Shown one piece after another: positions 17,104 through 31,038 of a stretch of 64,000 nt of DNA; within the stretch, counting starts at the first letter, position 1; every line of letters starts with the position of its first letter. Source of the DNA: Armatimonadota bacterium (lineage in GTDB: Bacteria > Armatimonadota > UBA5829 > DTLH01); the NCBI GenBank assembly GCA_038207085.1, contig JBBRAE010000008.1, positions 1-64,000 on the forward strand. Direction: 5' to 3'. The translations under genes were made by a program, and so were the position numbers. The notes beneath the pieces were generated by a model. It was not told the DNA's origin and searched no databases. It saw only the letters and a program-made list of their open reading frames with translations.

Positions 17104-17922
17104 ATGTCTAAATCGTTAGTCTTCACTACTCTATTTGCAGCAGCAGGTCTCGCACTTGTGGCGATGCCAACGTCGGCAGAAACGTGGAACTTGGCCGATG
17201 ATTTTTCGCTGACCAACAACAATGGCACCGGGGCATGGGCCTATGGTTACGTTGACCAGGCCAGCGGCAACGCTTTCACCCTGTATGACCAGTCAACATC
17301 GTTCTATCAGAGCCCCGGTGGCTGGAATCAGCCGCTTCCCTACTGGGGCAACGGTAACTGGTCAGATGGAGGCATGGTCGCCAAGAACACAAGCAGTACG
17401 GCGTTCATCTGGACTGCATGGAACAAGGATCCCAACTACTGGTATGTTGAGCCGGGTGCTGTATCCCTTGCAAGCGGCAAGAACAGGAGCCACCTCGCTG
17501 CCGTGCGGTGGACCGCGAACTTCACCGGCACAATCGACCTTTCAGCTACGGCGATTATGTCGGGCAAGGGTGGTCCTCAGGCGATGGCTGTAGTCAAGAA
17601 CAGCACAATCCTTTCCAATGAGCTTGTAGACGGGTTCGCCGGCTCTGGGCCGGATTACACCAACCGAACCGGCAACTGGACCAAGACTTTCACCTCCAGC
17701 ATTGATGTTAATGTCGGTGACAACATCTATTTTGTCCACGACCTCAACTACCAGACGGGCTATGGCTGGGCAACTAACTGGGGCACAAACAGCTGGGAGA
17801 ACCGCAATGTCAGCCTGTCGGCGACTATCGTATCGCAGCCTACCCCTGAGCCGGGCAGCATGCTGGCTCTCGGCAGCGGTCTGATCGGGCTCTTGGGCTT
17901 CGCGGTCCGCAGAAGAAAGTAG
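17104..17922 (+). CDS. PEP-CTERM sorted surface protein
   Basis: Signal peptide; aromatic/Asn/Gly-rich beta domain; C-terminal TPEPGSMLALGSGLIGLLGFAVRRRK. Confidence 0.93.
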   Translation: MSKSLVFTTLFAAAGLALVAMPTSAETWNLADDFSLTNNNGTGAWAYGYVDQASGNAFTLYDQSTSFYQSPGGWNQPLPYWGNGNWSDGGMVAKNTSSTAFIWTAWNKDPNYWYVEPGAVSLASGKNRSHLAAVRWTANFTGTIDLSATAIMSGKGGPQAMAVVKNSTILSNELVDGFAGSGPDYTNRTGNWTKTFTSSIDVNVGDNIYFVHDLNYQTGYGWATNWGTNSWENRNVSLSATIVSQPTPEPGSMLALGSGLIGLLGFAVRRRK

Positions 17923-23305: not shown

Positions 23306-24001
23306 ATGAACGCTTTAAGAATTGCCGTATTATGCTGCATTGCGCTTGCGATGGTTCTTGTTGCGGGGTGCAAGAGCAAGGATAGCACTCCGCCGGTCGG
23401 CTCAGGACCGGCAAGCTCTATGGTCAGATTTGTGCATGCCAGCCCCAACGCACCGGTGGTTGATGTTGTCGCCGGAGGCAAGGCTGTGGCGCAGAACCTC
23501 GCTTACATGCAGGTCACCGACTATGCACCCATCGTCCCGGATACCTACAAGGTGGAGGTCTTCCCCACCGGAACCCGGGAAAACGCTTTGATAAAGAAAG
23601 ATGTCACAGTGGCGGCGGGCAAGAGCTACACCGCGCTCGTGATTGGAATGCTTGAGAACATCAAGCCACTGCTCCTGGTCGATGACATGACCGCCCCACC
23701 CGCAGGTCAGGCCAAGGTCCGGTTTGTGCATGTGAGCCCGGATGCGCCTGCGATTGACATCAGCATCCCAGCGTCGAGCCTGACGCTCACCCGCAACCTG
23801 TCATTCGGCACGGCGAGCCCTTACATCACTGTAACCGGGGGCACCTATGATGTAAACGTTATGCCTTCGGGGCAGAGTGGCAACATCGTGCTCGTTGTGA
23901 ACGATGTAAACGTCGTTGCCGGTAATGTCTACACCGTGGTAATCATGGGCCGCGTCGCGACCAATACTCTGATGTCGCAAACTCTGATCGATAACCCATA
24001 G
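23306..24001 (+). CDS. DUF4397-family lipoprotein
   Basis: Lipobox LVAGC; two VRFVH(A/V)SP(N/D)AP repeats. Confidence 0.85.
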   Translation: MNALRIAVLCCIALAMVLVAGCKSKDSTPPVGSGPASSMVRFVHASPNAPVVDVVAGGKAVAQNLAYMQVTDYAPIVPDTYKVEVFPTGTRENALIKKDVTVAAGKSYTALVIGMLENIKPLLLVDDMTAPPAGQAKVRFVHVSPDAPAIDISIPASSLTLTRNLSFGTASPYITVTGGTYDVNVMPSGQSGNIVLVVNDVNVVAGNVYTVVIMGRVATNTLMSQTLIDNP

Positions 24002-24055
24002 AGTCGCTGGCAAGAGTTCGCATTGTATCGGGGACACCTGTCCCCGATACTTGTT

Positions 24056-24865
24056 CTACGACAAATCCTCAAGTCCAAGCAGCTTCGCTGCATTGTTACC
24101 GAGCACCGCATCGATCTCTTCACTCGAAAGCGCAAGCGCACGGATTCCGTCGAGCTCAGCCGAGTGCGGGGTCCAGGGGGAGTCGGTGCCAAAGAGAATC
24201 TTCTCGGCTCCGTGGGCTTTGATCATCGCGGCCATGCGCTCCGGGCCCATGTCGGCAAGAGAATAGGACGTGTCAAGATATAGGTCGCGGCCGATCAGGT
24301 GTTTTTCGACATCGTCCCACATCAAGTAGCCCCCCATGTGTGCAGCGATTGCAGTTAGGTCTGGCACTTCGTCGAGCACGTGAGCGAGCCTGTCCGGGGT
24401 CGCGTGGGTTGGGGGAGGCAGGCCGATGTCTACGCCTGCGTGGAACAGGACGACGAGCCCTGCGTCGGCAAGCAGGTGATACATCGGGATCACCTCGGGA
24501 TCATCTACGAAGAAAGCCTGATAGTCGGGGTGGAGTTTGATCCCCCGGATGCCGTCGGCTTTCATCTGTTCGATCTCTGCGGCCCACTGGGCCGGTGCAA
24601 ACGGGTGCAGGCTTCCAAACGAGATCAGTTCGGGATATGTCTCGCGCACTTCAACTGCCCAGGAATTGATCACACGGGTCTGCGTCGGTTTGGTCGCGAT
24701 CGGCATAATGACGGCCAAGTCTACTCCGGCCTCCCTGATGGCCTTCGCGAGCCCCGAGCACGTGCCGTCGGTAAAGGCGAGGCAGTCGCAGTTATGAGTG
24801 AGCGTCCCGATCGCCCGCGGTGCCAGGTCGTCGGGGAACGCGTGCGCGTGAATGTCGATAATCAT
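24056..24865 (-). CDS. Amidohydrolase family protein (Amidohydro_2)
   Basis: IDIHAH, GIKLHPDYQ, FHAG, AHMGG and LFGTDSPW motifs. Confidence 0.92.
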   Translation of the reverse strand: MIIDIHAHAFPDDLAPRAIGTLTHNCDCLAFTDGTCSGLAKAIREAGVDLAVIMPIATKPTQTRVINSWAVEVRETYPELISFGSLHPFAPAQWAAEIEQMKADGIRGIKLHPDYQAFFVDDPEVIPMYHLLADAGLVVLFHAGVDIGLPPPTHATPDRLAHVLDEVPDLTAIAAHMGGYLMWDDVEKHLIGRDLYLDTSYSLADMGPERMAAMIKAHGAEKILFGTDSPWTPHSAELDGIRALALSSEEIDAVLGNNAAKLLGLEDLS

Positions 24866-24947
24866 CTTAAGTCCGTCGTCCTTTATTAAGCTTTCCTGTT
24901 AATTCTACCCTTGAATACGCCCCGAGGTCAACGAAGAATCGTCCTAC

Positions 24948-25004
24948 TTGCATTCACTCGATCCCGATGATATACTTCAGTTACGGTTGTGAAATCGTGC
25001 ACGA
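24948..25004 (+). promoter_or_regulatory. rex promoter with Rex operator-like site
   Basis: TTGCAT-N17-TATACT (24948-24976), then TTGTGAAATCGTGCACGA (24987-25004), 2 mismatches to TTGTGAA-N4-TTCACAA. Confidence 0.75.
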
Positions 25005-25035
25005 TTCATTTTGAACTGTCCTCCAGGTGTGACTG

Positions 25036-25680
25036 ATGCGAAAAAACAACGGCCACAAAGTCCCAATGCCAACGCTTGAGCGACTTGCCACATATCTCAC
25101 CTCGCTAACCGAGCTTGCCGATCAGCAGGTGCAGACGGTATCCTCAAGCGACATCGAGCAGGTTACCGGGATCAACGCGGCTCAGTTCCGCAAGGACCTG
25201 TCCTACTTCGGCGAGTTCGGGCGACCGGGCATCGGCTACAATGTGCTGGAGCTAAGGAGTTGGATCGCCCAAATCCTCAAAGTCGAACGCGAGCAGCCCG
25301 TCATCCTCGTCGGCGCGGGAAACCTCGGGAGCGCGCTTGTGGGTTACGCGGGGCTTGGTATTCAGAACTTTCGGATCTGTGGCGTCTTTGACAACAACTA
25401 CAACAAGATCGGACGCAGGCTCTGGGACCAGGAGATTATGGACGTCGCGACGATTGTCGAGGCGAACAGCGAGATTCAGGCGCGCATCGGGGTGATCGCG
25501 GTTCCGGCGAGCGTGGGTCAGGATGTCGCCAACAGAATGATCGAGGCCGGAGTCAAGTCGATTCTCAACTTTGCGCCGACCAGGCTTAAGGTTCCAGAGG
25601 GCGTGGTCGTGCGAAATGTCGACTTTGTGCAGGAACTAGCCGTTCTCGCGTTTCATCTGTCGGAAGATGAATCCGAATGA
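25036..25680 (+). CDS. rex: Redox-sensing transcriptional repressor Rex
   Basis: TLERLATY, QFRKDLSYFGEFGRPGIGY, LVGAGNLG Rossmann motif, ILNFAP. Confidence 0.97.
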   Translation: MRKNNGHKVPMPTLERLATYLTSLTELADQQVQTVSSSDIEQVTGINAAQFRKDLSYFGEFGRPGIGYNVLELRSWIAQILKVEREQPVILVGAGNLGSALVGYAGLGIQNFRICGVFDNNYNKIGRRLWDQEIMDVATIVEANSEIQARIGVIAVPASVGQDVANRMIEAGVKSILNFAPTRLKVPEGVVVRNVDFVQELAVLAFHLSEDESE

Positions 25681-26099
25681 GGAAATACATGAAGAACTTC
25701 ACCATCGCCGCCGCGATCGTGCTTGTGGCCTCCGGGATAATCGTCGCCGCCCCCTCCAAAGACGCGAAGTACATCGGCGCGGACAAGTGCAAATCATGCC
25801 ACTCGACCGAGCACAAGGGCTGGAGCAAGACCGCGCATGCCCGGGCGTTTGATCAGCTCGCGAACGTCGGGCAGGAGAAAAACGGTGACTGCCTGCCCTG
25901 CCACACAACCGGTTACGGCATCGGCGGGTTCACCAATGAAGCTGCGACCCCGAACTTCAAAGCGGTGCAGTGCGAGAGTTGCCACGGGCCGGGAAGCGAG
26001 CACAACGGCGACGCCACAAAGATCGTGCGGGCGCCTTCCTCAATCATCTGCGCGGGCTGCCACCAAAGCCACGGACTTCACCCCAAAAGCAGCATGTAA
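25677..26099 (+). CDS. Exported tetraheme c-type cytochrome (c554/C-prime-like)
   Basis: Signal peptide; YIGADKCKSCH..W..T.HARA; 4 CxxCH (CKSCH, CLPCH, CESCH, CAGCH); ATGA overlap with the rex stop. Confidence 0.9.
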   Translation: MRKYMKNFTIAAAIVLVASGIIVAAPSKDAKYIGADKCKSCHSTEHKGWSKTAHARAFDQLANVGQEKNGDCLPCHTTGYGIGGFTNEAATPNFKAVQCESCHGPGSEHNGDATKIVRAPSSIICAGCHQSHGLHPKSSM

Positions 26100-26148
26100 G
26101 CAATCTTCACAGTGGTTTAAATAATCTTCAGTCACGCTTTAGTTTCCG

Positions 26149-26204
26149 TTGACAATCCTTGCAGGCTGGGGTATTATGAAACTGAACTGTGAACATCGGC
26201 ACAA
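26149..26204 (+). promoter_or_regulatory. Promoter of the 14-heme cytochrome with second Rex operator-like site
   Basis: TTGACA-N17-TATTAT (26149-26177), then CTGTGAACATCGGCACAA (26187-26204). Confidence 0.65.
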
Positions 26205-26263
26205 AGCCTGCAAGTAGCAAGCTGCGACATTCAACGCTCGTGCATGCCCGTGAAAGGGATCAG

Positions 26264-27397
26264 ATGGCTTCTGTATCGCGGTGGTCCTCAGCCATTCTGG
26301 CGACTCTTTTCTTAAGCCTCGCTGCTGTTGCGACGGCCGATACCGCGCCCGCGTCCCCCTCCGCTACCCTCAGCGCCGAGGAGTCATGCGGCAAGTGCCA
26401 CTTCGACAATTCCCCGAACGCCGTCTCCGGCAAGACCATCGAGAGCAAATACTGGAAAAGGTCCGACCACAAACGAAACGATGTCGAGTGCCTTTCCTGC
26501 CACTACGAACACGGCGGCTCGGCAGGGATGTTCAGGAAGAAGTCGCCGGATCTCTGCATCGGCTGCCACAAGGAGATCGCGAAAAAGGGCGATTACCTAC
26601 ATGCGCCGATCGCCGGAGGAGCGTGTCTTACCTGTCACAACCCTCACGGAACGAGCGCGCGCCATCAGCTTGTGAAGAACGTATCCACGTCGTGCGTCGC
26701 CTGCCACAGCCCCAAAGTCGCCAAGTTTACCCTCGCCCACAAGGGCATCGATGTTTCCACTTCGAACTGCGTCGAGTGCCATTCGGCCCATTCCCGCAAC
26801 AGGACAGCAAAGCGCATCAAACCCAGACAGCACATGCCGTTTAAGAGCGGTCAATGTGGCACGTGCCACAAACCTGGGAGCAGTGAGCTCGCCAAACCCG
26901 AGAAAGATCTCTGCGCGATCTGCCACAAAGACGTTGTCGGGTCCCCTGAGAAGGCGGGACATGCTCACGCCGCGGTTACAGAAGGGATGTGCACCCAGTG
27001 CCATTCCCCGCACGCGTCTGACGCTCCAAAGGGGCTTTACAAAGACAAACAGATTGCCAACTCCTGTTTCCTCTGCCACACAGGCGTAGAGGATGAGGTG
27101 AACTCGAAGTATAAGCACGAACCCGCGCGCGATCTCAACTGTCTCACCTGTCACAAGGGGCACTCGTCGACCCAGAAGACTTTGCTCGTCAAGGATTCGA
27201 TAGAGCTTTGCAAAGGCTGCCACAAGCCGCACGCTCATCCCTTTGGCAAGCTTGCAAACGGCAAGGTAGTCATCGACCCAACCACAAACGATATGCTCAC
27301 CTGCGCGAGTTGTCATACTCCGCACGGTTCAAACCATAACAAACTTACACATCTGGACAAGAACGCGGAACTCTGCACAATGTGCCACAAGGTGTAG
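26264..27397 (+). CDS. Exported multiheme c-type cytochrome, 14 CxxCH (paired CxxCH type)
   Basis: Signal peptide from ATG 26264; 14 CxxCH counted, mostly as CxxCHxxH..CxxCH pairs. Confidence 0.93.
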   Translation: MASVSRWSSAILATLFLSLAAVATADTAPASPSATLSAEESCGKCHFDNSPNAVSGKTIESKYWKRSDHKRNDVECLSCHYEHGGSAGMFRKKSPDLCIGCHKEIAKKGDYLHAPIAGGACLTCHNPHGTSARHQLVKNVSTSCVACHSPKVAKFTLAHKGIDVSTSNCVECHSAHSRNRTAKRIKPRQHMPFKSGQCGTCHKPGSSELAKPEKDLCAICHKDVVGSPEKAGHAHAAVTEGMCTQCHSPHASDAPKGLYKDKQIANSCFLCHTGVEDEVNSKYKHEPARDLNCLTCHKGHSSTQKTLLVKDSIELCKGCHKPHAHPFGKLANGKVVIDPTTNDMLTCASCHTPHGSNHNKLTHLDKNAELCTMCHKV

Positions 27398-27462
27398 ATA
27401 ACTAACCCGTTGTTTCGGGGACCCCGTCCCCGAAACCGACTGCTGGCATACGGCAAACTGAT

Positions 27463-28476
27463 ATGATCACAGCGAACTTCACAACTTGGCGCGTGGGCAT
27501 TGTGACAAAGTTCACTCTGCTCTTTATGATTGGAGCTATGTCGCACGCAGGCGGCACTGCGCTTCCTGAGATCAAAGATAACACCAATCTTTGCATTTAC
27601 GGATGGTCGCGCAGTGAGCCGTTCAAGAACCCCGGCGGCGTGTATTTCTATGCCAGACGCTCCGAGGTGTATGTCGCTGACTCCGGGAACCACCAGGTGC
27701 TTGTGTTCAACACCGCTGGGACGCCCGTTGCGAGGATCAGGCACAGCGTCGACTCCGAGACGCCGGGAGAGGTCCGTCAGGGTGAGCCCGTGCGGGTTGC
27801 GGTCAACTCCAGAGGCGACATCCTTTTGGTCGACGCGCTTGCGGGGTATCTCGACGTGCTCGACTACCGGGGCAAATCGATCAAACGGATATACCCCGGA
27901 GACCTGCTGGGGATGGCCCGGGATTTGGTATCGTGCTCGGCGGTTGCGGTGGATCTGGCAGACAATGTCTATCTTGCGACTGCGGGCGGCGAGGTCGCGG
28001 TGCTCATGATCGACCCGTCAGGCAAGCTTGTGCGCAAGATCGGCAAGAAGGGCCAGGGCGAAGGGGCGTTTACATCGATCACCTCGGTCTGGATCGATGG
28101 CGGTGGCAAGGTCTACACTACCGACTCCAGAGGCGAGCCGAGTGTGCAGGTGTTCTCGCCCGAAGGCAAAGTCCTGCTCGGGTTTGGGGCTCACTCGTCG
28201 GGGCCGAACAATTTCTCTCTACCCGAAGGCGTCGTAACCGACGAACTCGGCAACATCTACGTGATCGATGGGCTGCGCCACTGGATCGGCGCGTTCAGCC
28301 CGACCGGTCAGTTCATAACGAGGCTTGGCGGCGGGTTCGGTGATCGTCCCGGCGACCTTGCCTATCCGACCTCGCTCGCCGGAGACGGCAAACGGACCCT
28401 CTTTACGACCGAAAAGGTCGGGGCGAGGCTGCAGGGGTTCAATCTCAAAATCACACCACCGAAATCAGGTGATTGA
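27463..28476 (+). CDS. NHL-repeat beta-propeller protein
   Basis: FKNPGGV..VYVADSGNHQVLVF, FSLPEGVVTDELGNIYVID and LAYPTSL blades; hydrophobic N-terminus; start uncertain. Confidence 0.9.
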   Translation: MITANFTTWRVGIVTKFTLLFMIGAMSHAGGTALPEIKDNTNLCIYGWSRSEPFKNPGGVYFYARRSEVYVADSGNHQVLVFNTAGTPVARIRHSVDSETPGEVRQGEPVRVAVNSRGDILLVDALAGYLDVLDYRGKSIKRIYPGDLLGMARDLVSCSAVAVDLADNVYLATAGGEVAVLMIDPSGKLVRKIGKKGQGEGAFTSITSVWIDGGGKVYTTDSRGEPSVQVFSPEGKVLLGFGAHSSGPNNFSLPEGVVTDELGNIYVIDGLRHWIGAFSPTGQFITRLGGGFGDRPGDLAYPTSLAGDGKRTLFTTEKVGARLQGFNLKITPPKSGD

Positions 28477-28602
28477 TGATACAGGTCGGGCTTTGCCCGG
28501 CTTGGATAGTAAAACAGTATCAGTATAAGGAAAGAAGGTGAATCCTTAACTAACATTTACACTACAAAGTGTAGGGATTCAATAGTTAAGGAAGAAAAGA
28601 CC

Positions 28603-29685
28603 ATGAACAAAACGCTTCCAGTAATTGCCGTAGCGCTGATTGTAGTATTCGCAGCCGCTGTGTCATACGCCGGTGACTATCACTCAGGCGCCAACAACGT
28701 GTGTTCCGACTGCCACACCATGCACTACAGCCGCAGCCATGACACCGCGGGAGGCACGGGGACAGGTTTTACCGACCTCGGCCCCGGTGGTCTGTTCACA
28801 GGCTTGCTCCGGGATGAGCCGAACAAGCTCTGCCTGGCGTGCCATGACGGCAAGACCGACGCTCCCGACGTTCTCGGCAACAACACGAACAGCTACTCCC
28901 GCTCAGGGGGCGCGCTGAACGACACCGCCGGGACCGACGGCTATGCATCGTGGACCGGCCACACGCTCGGTTCCACATCCGCGGCTCCGGGCGGCACGTT
29001 TGCCGACGCCGAGGGGCTTGAGTGCATCGACTGCCACCATCAGCATGGTTCGGCTTCAAGTGGAAAAGACGCGACCGGAGCTACCGTCTCAAGCGCCTAC
29101 CGCAACCTGAAGTCGTGGAACGACGGCTCCGGCAACCGTGCGGTGAGCTACTCGGCCGGCGACACCAAAGACCTCACTAAGGACGTTTGGGAGGCCTACG
29201 GACACGGTTCGACGCTTGCTCAGCACTATGGGCAGGACAACGTCGGACTGCTCGAACCCGTTCAGACCAAGTCCGGTATGGCTGACTACTGCAAGAGCTG
29301 CCACACCAGCTTCCACGGCGCCAAGGGCGATGTGAACACCGTCGGCGGCGACGTGGCGACCGGGCACGATTGGCTTCGCCACCCGAATGCTGACAGCAAC
29401 ATCGGCGGTCAAACGACCAAGGGCCATTCCAACCTGGCCCGCTACAACACCAAGCTCTATCGCGTCCGCGTTATGAGCGGCTCGGGCAACTGGGGCACCC
29501 AGGGAGCAGCCTGGACCGGCGCTCCGACCGACCTTACCCCAACGTGTCTCTCCTGTCACAAGGCCCACGGCAACAAGAACGCCTTCGGCCTGGTCCTGGC
29601 AGACGGCACCGCAGCAATCGGCGAAGATGGAAACACAACTTCCACCAAGTCGACCTGCACCCAGTGCCACGTTCAGGGCGGGTAG
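28603..29685 (+). CDS. Exported hexaheme c-type cytochrome, OmcS-like
   Basis: Signal peptide; YHSG...CSDCHTMH; 6 CxxCH with the last at the C-terminus; GHTL, AYRNL, LRHP and CLSCHKAH motifs. Confidence 0.85.
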   Translation: MNKTLPVIAVALIVVFAAAVSYAGDYHSGANNVCSDCHTMHYSRSHDTAGGTGTGFTDLGPGGLFTGLLRDEPNKLCLACHDGKTDAPDVLGNNTNSYSRSGGALNDTAGTDGYASWTGHTLGSTSAAPGGTFADAEGLECIDCHHQHGSASSGKDATGATVSSAYRNLKSWNDGSGNRAVSYSAGDTKDLTKDVWEAYGHGSTLAQHYGQDNVGLLEPVQTKSGMADYCKSCHTSFHGAKGDVNTVGGDVATGHDWLRHPNADSNIGGQTTKGHSNLARYNTKLYRVRVMSGSGNWGTQGAAWTGAPTDLTPTCLSCHKAHGNKNAFGLVLADGTAAIGEDGNTTSTKSTCTQCHVQGG

Positions 29686-29711
29686 GGCGCAAGCTGTTAG
29701 CTGTTAAGTAT

Positions 29712-29743
29712 GGGCGGCGAAAGAGATTTCGCCGCCCTGTTTT
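29712..29743 (+). terminator. Rho-independent terminator
   Basis: GGGCGGCGAAA-GAGA-TTTCGCCGCCC then TGTTTT. Confidence 0.8.
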
Positions 29744-29795
29744 ACGTTCTCCCGGCGATGGCAAAAGCTCAATTCTCTCCGCGGATGCTGCGATC

Positions 29796-29831
29796 TTGAC
29801 GTCGAAATATGGTATGACTATAATAGTCATA
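29796..29831 (+). promoter_or_regulatory. vapBC promoter with palindromic operator
   Basis: TTGACG-N17-TATAAT; perfect palindrome TATGACTAT-A-ATAGTCATA (29813-29831) covers the -10. Confidence 0.8.
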
Positions 29832-29855
29832 TTAAGAGTATTAGGTGTACATATT

Positions 29856-30149
29856 ATGCGAACTGCAGCGATAGCGAAGCTAAAGGCGGGATTGTCCGGG
29901 TACCTTGAGAGCGTGAAAGGCGGAGAGCAGGTTGTGGTTACAGACCGTGGCCGTCCGGTGGCGCTCATTGTGCCTATTGATCCGAATATATCTATGGATG
30001 AGAGACGAGCGGAACTTGTCGCCAAGGGGCTGGTAAGGCCCGGTTGTGGATCAATCCCGGTGGATTTGATAGAAGGGGCCGTCGTTTCCGGTCTGACATC
30101 TGAGCGTGCGCTTCAGGCTGTTATTGAAGACCGCGAGGACAGAGTATGA
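29856..30149 (+). CDS. vapB: Phd/YefM-family antitoxin
   Basis: MRTAAIAKLKAGLSGYLESVKGGEQVVVTDRGRPVALIVP; overlaps the PIN gene by ATGA. Confidence 0.9.
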   Translation: MRTAAIAKLKAGLSGYLESVKGGEQVVVTDRGRPVALIVPIDPNISMDERRAELVAKGLVRPGCGSIPVDLIEGAVVSGLTSERALQAVIEDREDRV

Positions 30150-30568
30150 AGTTCTGGGATACCTCCGCGCTTTTCGTGCTCCTGACCGTCCAGCCCGACA
30201 GCTCCAGTGCCGCCGCCGTGTTTGGCTCTGATCCTGAGGTGGCGATGTGGTGGGTGACATCCGTCGAGTTGGCCTCGGCAGCGTCCCGGTTGCGTAGAAT
30301 GGGTGAGGTTGACGAGGCGGGCTATGTGCGCATACTCAGCAAGATAGCGCCTTTTGCTCGGAGCGCTGAGGAGGTCCAGCCTACTGAGGAGGTCAGGCAG
30401 ACCGCGCTCAGGCTGATCCGGGTCCACGACCTGCGTACCGCTGACTCGCTCCAACTCGCGGCAGCTCTTGTCTGGGCAAGGCACGTCCCAACAGGTCTTG
30501 GGTTTGTATGCATGGATGCGAAGCTTCGTGCAGCTGCCGAAAAAGAGGGTTTTATCGTCTTGGGATAA
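30146..30568 (+). CDS. vapC: PIN-domain toxin
   Basis: FWDTSAL, VELASA, LRTADSLQLAAA, D.KL..AA..EGF. Confidence 0.92.
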   Translation: MKFWDTSALFVLLTVQPDSSSAAAVFGSDPEVAMWWVTSVELASAASRLRRMGEVDEAGYVRILSKIAPFARSAEEVQPTEEVRQTALRLIRVHDLRTADSLQLAAALVWARHVPTGLGFVCMDAKLRAAAEKEGFIVLG

Positions 30569-30667
30569 GCTTGGAACACGGCTGTTGTGGGTGTGATACT
30601 GCGATTTGTTTGGTGGTGATCTCCCTTATTTCCTTCCTCGAATGCAGGATAACAAATATTCAATCCC

Positions 30668-30748
30668 TTAGCCCGCTTTATTCGTGAAGCGAATAAAGCT
30701 TTCACTAACAGAGCATTATTCACGCCACTCGTGAATAATGCCGGTTAG
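30668..30748 (+). repeat. 81-nt double-hairpin palindromic repeat (TTAG/CTAG-ended family)
   Basis: GCTTTATTCG..CGAATAAAGC plus GCATTATTCACG..CGTGAATAATGC; near reverse complement of 43979-44059. Confidence 0.88.
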
Positions 30749-30818
30749 AGCGTGTCTGAGAAGTGTAGTGGCCGGCACGGCGACCGGCCACTACAATCGG
30801 GATTTCTCAAACCCGCTC
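30748..30818. mobile_element. 71-bp MITE with IS5 (IS1031-group)-like ends, carrying a REP hairpin
   Basis: TIRs GAGCGTGTCTGAGAA / TTCTCAAACCCGCTC (13/15 match), flanked by TTA on both sides; internal TGTAGTGGCCGG-N8-CCGGCCACTACA (30764-30795). Confidence 0.65.
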
Positions 30819-31038
30819 TTAGATGCACAGCAATCCAGCATAACGAAATGAAGGTGATGCATACAGGCCAAGGGTGACAATCCCCCCTGTCACTCCCCCA
30901 CAAATCACCGTGCAATCTCCCCATCCCGCAATCCAACTTACTGTCGTCAAAATTTGCCTTCTCTCTGGAGTCCACGCCCAATTCATGGTATGCTTGATGA
31001 GTATGTAATTGATTCATGTGCGGCTGAGGTGTGGATAG

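Follow-up and report, generated by a model that had tools for sequence, protein, structure and literature searches.

The gene at positions 28603–29685 (+ strand) of the window, the 64,000-nucleotide stretch of an Armatimonadota genome analyzed here, encodes a 360-residue hexaheme c-type cytochrome. Homology, fold and tree topology assign it to a short-form clade of proteins with the fold of OmcS (GSU2504 of G. sulfurreducens, PDB 6EF8/6NEF). Probably, this hexaheme serves as the abundant repeat subunit of an OmcS-type cytochrome filament, linked head to tail and made under NADH excess.

The reading frame contains no internal stops. Six CxxCH motifs, starting at C34, C77, C141, C230, C315 and C352, consume all 12 Cys residues, in agreement with the six hemes counted in the first-pass annotation; more than one CxxCH arose in 0 of 20000 residue shuffles. 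The motif series listed in that annotation was present in full and in the order given, namely YHSG..CSDCHTMH (C34-H38, H41), CLACH (C77), GHTL (H120), CIDCHHQHG (C141, H148), AYRNL, CKSCHTSFH (C230, H238), LRHP (H260), CLSCHKAHG (C315, H322) and CTQCH (C352), and the corresponding OmcS series given there agrees with the 6EF8 sequence. The full motif order recurred in 203 of 222 six-heme proteins from a set found without His-containing search patterns. By inspection, residues 1-23 (28603–28671, +) form a predicted Sec signal peptide with an N-terminal helix (residues 4-17) and no lipobox Cys. The predicted cleavage after A23 would leave 337 mature residues, compared with 407 in OmcS, and the mature chain would start directly before the YH pair aligned with OmcS F1-H2. 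Pfam and NCBIfam matches were limited to generic paired-CxxCH models, and a search of the ESM Atlas returned paired-CxxCH clusters only. Among 7086 candidates, 590 were relatives of the hexaheme at E ≤ 0.001, and a profile search with the family gave 1562 representatives at the same threshold.

A single-sequence phmmer search of the hexaheme against the PDB matched neither OmcS nor any other entry. The family profile, built from 119 of the 120 listed close relatives, matched OmcS (6EF8) with E 3.5e-16, and the next of the eight matches had E 0.12. The heme-free AlphaFold2 model (pLDDT 87.6) contained little secondary structure. Foldseek aligned it with 6EF8 at E 7.9e-7, with a TM-score of only 0.40, whereas VIA-align superposed residues 21-359 on chain residues 1-407 with Z 14.5 and rmsd 3.6 over 257 aa. 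For comparison with OmcS proper, metagenomes were scanned with an N-terminal OmcS motif, which yielded 33 OmcS-type loci; one motif-selected protein matched 6EF8 at E 1.6e-108. The hexaheme family aligned with 19 OmcS-type proteins in hhalign with a probability of 99.8 and E 1.2e-27. The OmcS homology proposed in the first-pass annotation is thus supported by profile, profile-profile and both structural comparisons, at a sequence identity of 19-24%. The VIA-align runners-up were MtrA (Z 4.9) and OmcE (Z 3.9). With MtrAB (PDB 6R2Q) the hexaheme shares the paired-CxxCH heme chain. In contrast to the MtrA/DmsE decahemes, it carries six hemes in the OmcS fold and scored 27 bits on TIGR03508, for which the cut-off is 192.2 bits. 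It also differs from the OmcE tetraheme nanowires, by its six hemes and a profile E of 0.13.

The 19 aligned OmcS-type proteins have exactly 12 invariant His residues, two of them fixed by the search motif. This equals the number of axial His ligands given for OmcS in PMC6584659. Six of these residues lie outside the CxxCH motifs, and H27, H41, H120, H148, H260 and H322 of the hexaheme align with them, being present in 117-119 of 119 close relatives and 319-323 of 323 sequences in a wider set. Along the + strand, the candidate distal ligand His27 (28681–28683; H2 in OmcS; 117/119, with two gaps) precedes heme motif 1 (C34-H38, 28702–28716). His41 (28723–28725; H16 in OmcS) was found in 119/119 and 319/323 sequences, the remaining four being gaps, and would act as the donor to heme 5 of a neighboring chain. 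His46 (28738–28740), conserved in 119/119 close relatives, is specific to the clade and has no counterpart in OmcS. Heme motif 2 (C77-H81, 28831–28845) is followed by His120 of the GHT motif (28960–28962; H110 in OmcS), and heme motif 3 (C141-H145) together with His148 (H147 in OmcS) spans 29023–29046. Heme motif 4 (C230-H234) and His238, which is invariant in the clade and not in the OmcS-type set, occupy 29290–29316. His260 of the RHP motif (29380–29382; H257 in OmcS) matches the invariant HP of OmcS-type proteins. Heme motif 5 (C315-H319) with His322 (H335 in OmcS) lies at 29545–29568, and heme motif 6 (C352-H356) with a four-residue His-free tail closes the frame at 29656–29685. All six distal His residues are therefore present at OmcS positions, as the first-pass annotation had proposed to check, and they are putative ligands of the six hemes. 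The same annotation had regarded the His three residues after the first CxxCH as the kind that supplies the inter-subunit ligand in OmcS filaments. The alignment of H41 with OmcS H16 upholds the position, and the ligand role of H16 itself was reportedly described by Wang in 2019. According to PMC6584659, heme 5 of OmcS draws its twelfth His from the neighboring molecule, and heme 5 of the hexaheme would likewise need a ligand from another chain.

Like OmcS, the hexaheme shows the fold over its whole length, six CxxCH motifs with six aligned distal His residues, a C-terminus directly past heme 6, loops rich in G/T/S/A/N, and an NHL gene directly upstream. Unlike OmcS, it is compact. Its hemes span 318 aa, where OmcS-type proteins have a median of 400, and the spacings between heme motifs are 43, 64, 89, 85 and 37 (39, 94, 102, 92 and 73 in the OmcS-type set). 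Because hemes 5 and 6 are separated by a loop of half the OmcS-type length (37 versus 73 aa), the OmcS interface could not be retained unchanged. The full length of 360 aa is about 17% below the 432 aa given for OmcS in PMC6584659. His46 occurred in 89 of 101 clade members, 1 of 17 members of the shorter paralog class and 0 of 20 OmcS-type proteins. In a quick tree of 95 rows, 23 OmcS-type rows stood opposite all 72 short forms, the hexaheme among the latter, across a branch of length 1.64+0.12 with support 100; the tree is unrooted (midpoint root), its OmcS-type rows were chosen by exact motif and 50 of 86 clade rows were dropped at random. Since it falls outside the OmcS-type rows across this long branch, the hexaheme, though OmcS-like in fold, belongs to a sister clade and is no OmcS ortholog. 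The suggestion that it is a trimmed OmcS variant holds in so far as the protein is shorter through loop loss; descent from OmcS was overstated, since the sister clade is large, its branch long and the tree unrooted. OmcT, OmcJ and GSU2501 (OscC) are likewise OmcS-like hexahemes, often in tandem, as described in 10.1101/2025.11.06.686851. They fall within ~10% of the OmcS length, the limit used there for OmcS proper, whereas the hexaheme lies beyond that limit and outside the sampled OmcS-type clade.

The best 80 of 257 GTDB loci came from Armatimonadota, Zixibacteria, Eisenbacteria, Krumholzibacteria, Planctomycetota, Ignavibacteria, Gemmatimonadota, Acidobacteriota and others. The distribution is patchy, with the family in 10 of 301 Armatimonadota genomes and in one of five other genomes of the host's own family; the host assembly comprises 83 contigs and 3.35 Mb, with a completeness of 100. 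Tandem copies of the clade gene were found in 20 of the 80 loci and resemble omcS-omcT of G. sulfurreducens. A full-text search returned no paper joining "Armatimonad" with "OmcS"; the surveys likeliest to cover the subject, Shen 2025 and Baquero 2023, lay outside its scope. Distant OmcS-like genes outside Geobacter have already been reported, in diverse taxa (PMC12954529; 10.1101/2020.09.22.307553) and specifically in Krumholzibacteria (10.1101/2020.09.22.307553).

The hexaheme terminates four residues past heme 6; tails in the clade are 2-10 aa long, and one of 116 contains a His. With a spare N-terminal His and a His-free C-terminal tail, the protein likely depends on another chain for the ligand of heme 5. 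Of 135 OmcS-fold proteins in the loci, 131 had both ends, i.e. a His three residues past the first CxxCH and a His-free tail, a count that is partly circular because the locus search patterns contained that donor His; sets found without His-containing patterns agree with it. The two barrel-adjacent cytochrome classes had the donor His in 29/31 and 12/12 members, and their tails were always His-bearing. In the 16-, 26- and 42-heme classes the donor His was found in 2/23, 0/12 and 0/21 proteins, respectively; 7, 10 and 9 of them had His-free tails, with only scattered His residues in the remainder. In the host genome, 3 of 15 ORFs with at least four hemes had both ends, namely the hexaheme and two OmcS-fold paralogs, a 333-aa hexaheme in a barrel operon (C12:3438-4439, locus L001) and a stand-alone seven-heme form (C14:41854-43161, L002).

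In four loci, a shorter paralog-type OmcS-fold unit was naturally fused to the next, capped hexaheme, giving proteins with 12 hemes (L035:13123-15273, L041:5119-7272, L047:5282-7390 and L048:12927-15023). We also noted a protein of 1879 aa with 24 hemes, P0239, which extends this layout. An interpretation of the 12- and 24-heme matches as tandem repeats of OmcS units was rejected, because the profile match is confined to the first unit, and what follows is a different cytochrome. Possession of both ends does not by itself prove a homopolymer, because the two paralogs possess them as well and these four loci fuse the shorter class to a capped cytochrome. We infer that chains are built through His donation, with OmcS-fold proteins as extenders. 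Mean-field DCA on 323 sequences placed its best pairs between the N- and C-terminal units at ranks 90, 93 and 113 (z ~4.5); these may be contacts within or between chains.

The gene order in the window is rex, tetraheme cytochrome, 14-heme cytochrome, NHL propeller, hexaheme and terminator, all on the + strand. The NADH/NAD+-sensing repressor Rex is encoded at 25036–25680 (NF003995 and other models above cut-off). The tetraheme c554-like cytochrome (25677–26099, PF13435) has equivalents at the same place in L044 and L059; it also scored 112 bits against the C-terminal region of NF041198, a UshA-like selenoprotein model with a cut-off of 275. The 14-heme paired-CxxCH cytochrome of the 16-heme class (26264–27397; its ORF opens at 26189, with the ATG at 26264) has no N-terminal donor His and a His-free C-terminal tail. 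The NHL-repeat β-propeller protein (27463–28476, PF01436) is a candidate chaperone of the hexaheme. Of the 73 loci with sufficient flank, 56 had an NHL gene directly upstream of the clade gene, and it takes the same position at OmcS-type loci. A terminator-like hairpin (11 pairs, 8 of them G-C) with a T run lies directly 3′ of the hexaheme gene (29712–29737). Beyond it, 29796–30568 (+) holds a promoter-like site and two ORFs, a small one and one with a PIN domain (PF01850, 22.2 bits, just below cut-off). The small ORF resembles a Phd/YefM antitoxin. A VapBC-like pair may stand here, where relatives carry on with the cytochrome cluster, and may mark the break that splits the cluster. Elsewhere in the window, the ORF at 17104–17922 ends in what we take to be a PEP-CTERM-like sorting motif.

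Further parts were located on other contigs of the host. Contig C12 carries a PD40 propeller, an NHL protein, the 333-aa paralog, a nine-heme cytochrome with donor His and His-bearing tail, and a 558-aa protein. The model of the latter is an all-β barrel of ~28 strands, with MtrB as its best PDB match (TM 0.52), and the protein is homologous to a family present in 41 loci. Contig C45 begins with a lipoprotein homolog, followed by ccmA, B, C, E and F and heme synthesis genes; an export signal, predicted for the hexaheme, and a c-type maturation system are both present in the host. L059 has all cluster parts other than the ccm genes side by side, in the order 4-heme, 16-heme, NHL, hexaheme class, PD40, NHL, paralog, 9-heme, barrel and lipoprotein. 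L059 and L044 suggest that C45 adjoins C12, although no sequence overlap between these two contigs was found. The cluster is split in the host over C8, C12 and probably C45. Apart from this cluster, C7:76453-93602 (L003) contains, judged from translations only, genes like alternative complex III and part of a cbb3-type oxidase, followed by 11- and 16-heme cytochromes.

Shen et al. reportedly described in 2025 an omcS-companion (osc) cluster. It corresponds to the block GSU2500-GSU2493 (PMC13194489, PMC13712944, 10.1101/2025.11.06.686851), and, as far as these sources describe it, our loci share its NHL propeller, 14/16-heme cytochrome, CsgG/LpoB-like lipoprotein family and large barrel. We mapped families to Osc names by gene order and size, by which the 14-heme cytochrome of the window would be OscJ-like. 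In OmcS-type loci such as L097, L102 and L108, the genes that follow encode a ~480-aa propeller, a ~730-aa protein, a pair of CsgG/LpoB-like lipoproteins, a PPIase and a large cytochrome, and these neighbor families also flank the short-form clade in L068, L082 and others. Relatives in Planctomycetota and other phyla share with OmcS-type loci the propeller, ~730-aa, lipoprotein, PPIase and 26-heme families. The host cluster differs from osc in being split over contigs and in having a PD40 propeller, a ~560-aa MtrB-like barrel and a single fused lipoprotein. The host genome gave no strong match to the ~480-aa propeller, the ~730-aa family or OscD-, OscE- and OscI-like counterparts, and it contained no 26-heme protein. 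A cytochrome of ~1050 aa with 42 CxxCH motifs is conserved in 21 loci (L020-L026, L029, L032, L033 and others; in pieces in L012), where it apparently replaces the separate 26- and 16-heme proteins.

The hexaheme gene ranked 35 of 2296 in codon bias relative to 12 highly expressed genes, whereas eight other cluster or paralog genes ranked 256-1244. Use of optimal NNC codons was higher in the hexaheme clade than in neighboring cytochromes (58/69), NHL genes (45/60), barrels (40/53) and the short paralog (11/15), and fourfold GC3 was not raised alongside; p-values for these comparisons are overstated because the loci are related. The excess over lipoproteins (37/58) was not significant, and by a simpler NNC measure within the host genome the paralogs equal the hexaheme (65/80, 57/68, 63/77). 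A structured intergenic leader with two hairpins (28482–28592, +; z −4.6, 0/200 shuffles) precedes the gene and is possibly an mRNA-stabilizing element. Rfam gave three matches in 24000–31000, all far under the gathering score and none a riboswitch. The leader of the OmcS-type gene in L087 (upstream of 329), judged by eye, resembles a riboswitch of the GEMM/c-di-GMP-I type. Within 28527–28600 we also observed an extra Shine-Dalgarno-like motif without a start codon, ~70 nt upstream of the ATG and followed by a hairpin. L004 and a small number of other loci have it too, and it is a possible transcript stabilizer. As a signal, the spare motif was set aside as too weak (5/92 clade and 4/29 OmcS-type genes, against 2/219 controls).

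Upstream of the 14-heme gene, 26149–26204 (+) contains a σ70-like promoter (11/12 matches) and then a weak Rex-box-like site with three mismatches. At the equivalent place, L059 has two exact Rex boxes and L004 one with three mismatches. Another Rex-box-like site (24987–25004, +), with two mismatches to the consensus given in PMC2883068, lies 32 nt before rex. The window holds four such sites against 1.56 expected, which is weak when taken alone; in seven Armatimonadota loci, we counted 10 boxes with at most two mismatches, against 0-1 in 30 shuffles, with none in three of the seven. At the same threshold, 39 sites were found in the 1.26 Mb of 73 non-Armatimonadota loci and 22 in the 3.35 Mb of the host genome, and Rex control of hexaheme clusters may be widespread. 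Taken together, codon bias and Rex boxes suggest an abundant, redox-induced subunit.

In the filament that we favor, the hexaheme would be exported by Sec and loaded with hemes by the Ccm system on C45, and the upstream NHL propeller would hold the subunit. His41 of one chain would then ligate heme 5 of the next to give a continuous bis-His heme stack. Cytochromes of the cluster with one kind of end would anchor or end the chain, with the MtrB-like barrel of C12 as the outer-membrane crossing. A build-up of NADH would relieve repression by Rex, and the wire would carry electrons to an external acceptor. The OmcS homology and fold, the two chain ends, the codon bias, the tandem copies, the neighbor families shared with OmcS-type loci, the MtrB-like barrel, the ccm and heme synthesis genes and the Rex boxes count in favor of the filament. 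The TM-score of 0.40, the low identity, the halved heme 5-6 loop, the paralogs sharing both ends and equaling the gene by the simpler NNC measure, and the lack of strong matches to OscD-, OscE- and OscI-like families count against it, as do H46, H238 and H275, spare His residues that could close heme 5. Homology alone is no proof of wires, because only OmcS among the four G. sulfurreducens paralogs is known to polymerize, according to 10.1101/2025.11.06.686851. The role of OmcS filaments is itself disputed, as deletion of OmcS left Fe(III) oxide reduction unblocked (PMC11077965).

The same ends could also serve a hetero-chain of fixed length, which we regard as rather unlikely. His41 would then ligate the open penultimate heme of the 14-heme neighbor, and heme 5 of the hexaheme would take the His of the C12 paralog, leading through the nine-heme cytochrome to the barrel, i.e. 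an extended porin-cytochrome conduit across the envelope. The parts do fit, as the 14-heme protein lacks a donor and ends in a His-free tail, the nine-heme protein combines a donor with a His-bearing tail, all parts are contiguous in L059, the paralog class is naturally fused to the next hexaheme, and the C12 barrel resembles MtrB. Nevertheless, no fusion of the hexaheme clade itself to a partner was seen among 80 loci, and a codon bias above that of the partners, a structured leader and terminator of its own and tandem duplication in 20/80 loci are more in keeping with a bulk subunit than with a 1:1 link. If it were a mere link of such a conduit, the hexaheme would be an ordinary addition to a known kind.

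The filament would also be absent if the hexaheme were a closed monomer or small oligomer, acting as a periplasmic or surface electron carrier. Its heme 5 would then either be capped by one of the spare His residues (46, 238 or 275) or stay five-coordinate as a reactive site. H46 and H238 are kept in 119/119 close relatives and H275 in 97/119, H46 is absent from OmcS-type proteins, and the interface loops are much shorter. We find this arrangement very unlikely, since H41 would be partnerless and is yet kept in 319/323 sequences, H275 drops to 193/323 in the wider set, and H46 sits in the N-terminal unit, which should be far from heme 5 along the heme axis of OmcS as described in PMC6584659. 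A different question is whether an OmcS-like filament, structurally overlapping with the one favored here, serves electron uptake, charge storage or adhesion rather than respiration of an external acceptor. The OmcS deletion result cited above and the patchy occurrence in the phylum (10/301 genomes) would allow it. However, the Rex boxes before the operons point to induction when NADH accumulates, which, from Rex biology, fits electron disposal, and we judge such other functions unlikely.

Extending the head-to-tail filament to its neighbors, we put forward, tentatively and as a possibility only, a polar, self-terminating wire kit operating by "donor-histidine complementation", as in chaperone-usher pili. 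The barrel-plugging cytochrome, with donor His and capped C-end, would be the base, the short OmcS-fold paralog the adaptor and the hexaheme the repeat subunit. An acceptor-only cytochrome with 14/16, 26 or 42 hemes would close the far end, each OmcS-fold subunit would have its own NHL chaperone, and Rex would be the switch. If true, this would name the anchor and the terminator of OmcS-type nanowires and extend these to at least 10 mostly uncultured phyla via a compact second clade.

The structure of OmcS wires is known from a single species, and PMC12307469 and PMC13712944 describe their anchoring, termination and secretion as an open question. The pattern of chain ends across the cluster leads to specific, testable pairings of anchor and cap. 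Because the short-form clade has kept the heme-ligand skeleton and lost ~80 loop residues, it offers a direct test of which parts of OmcS are needed for polymerization. For the organism itself, the hexaheme cluster points to Rex-controlled extracellular electron transfer in Armatimonadota.
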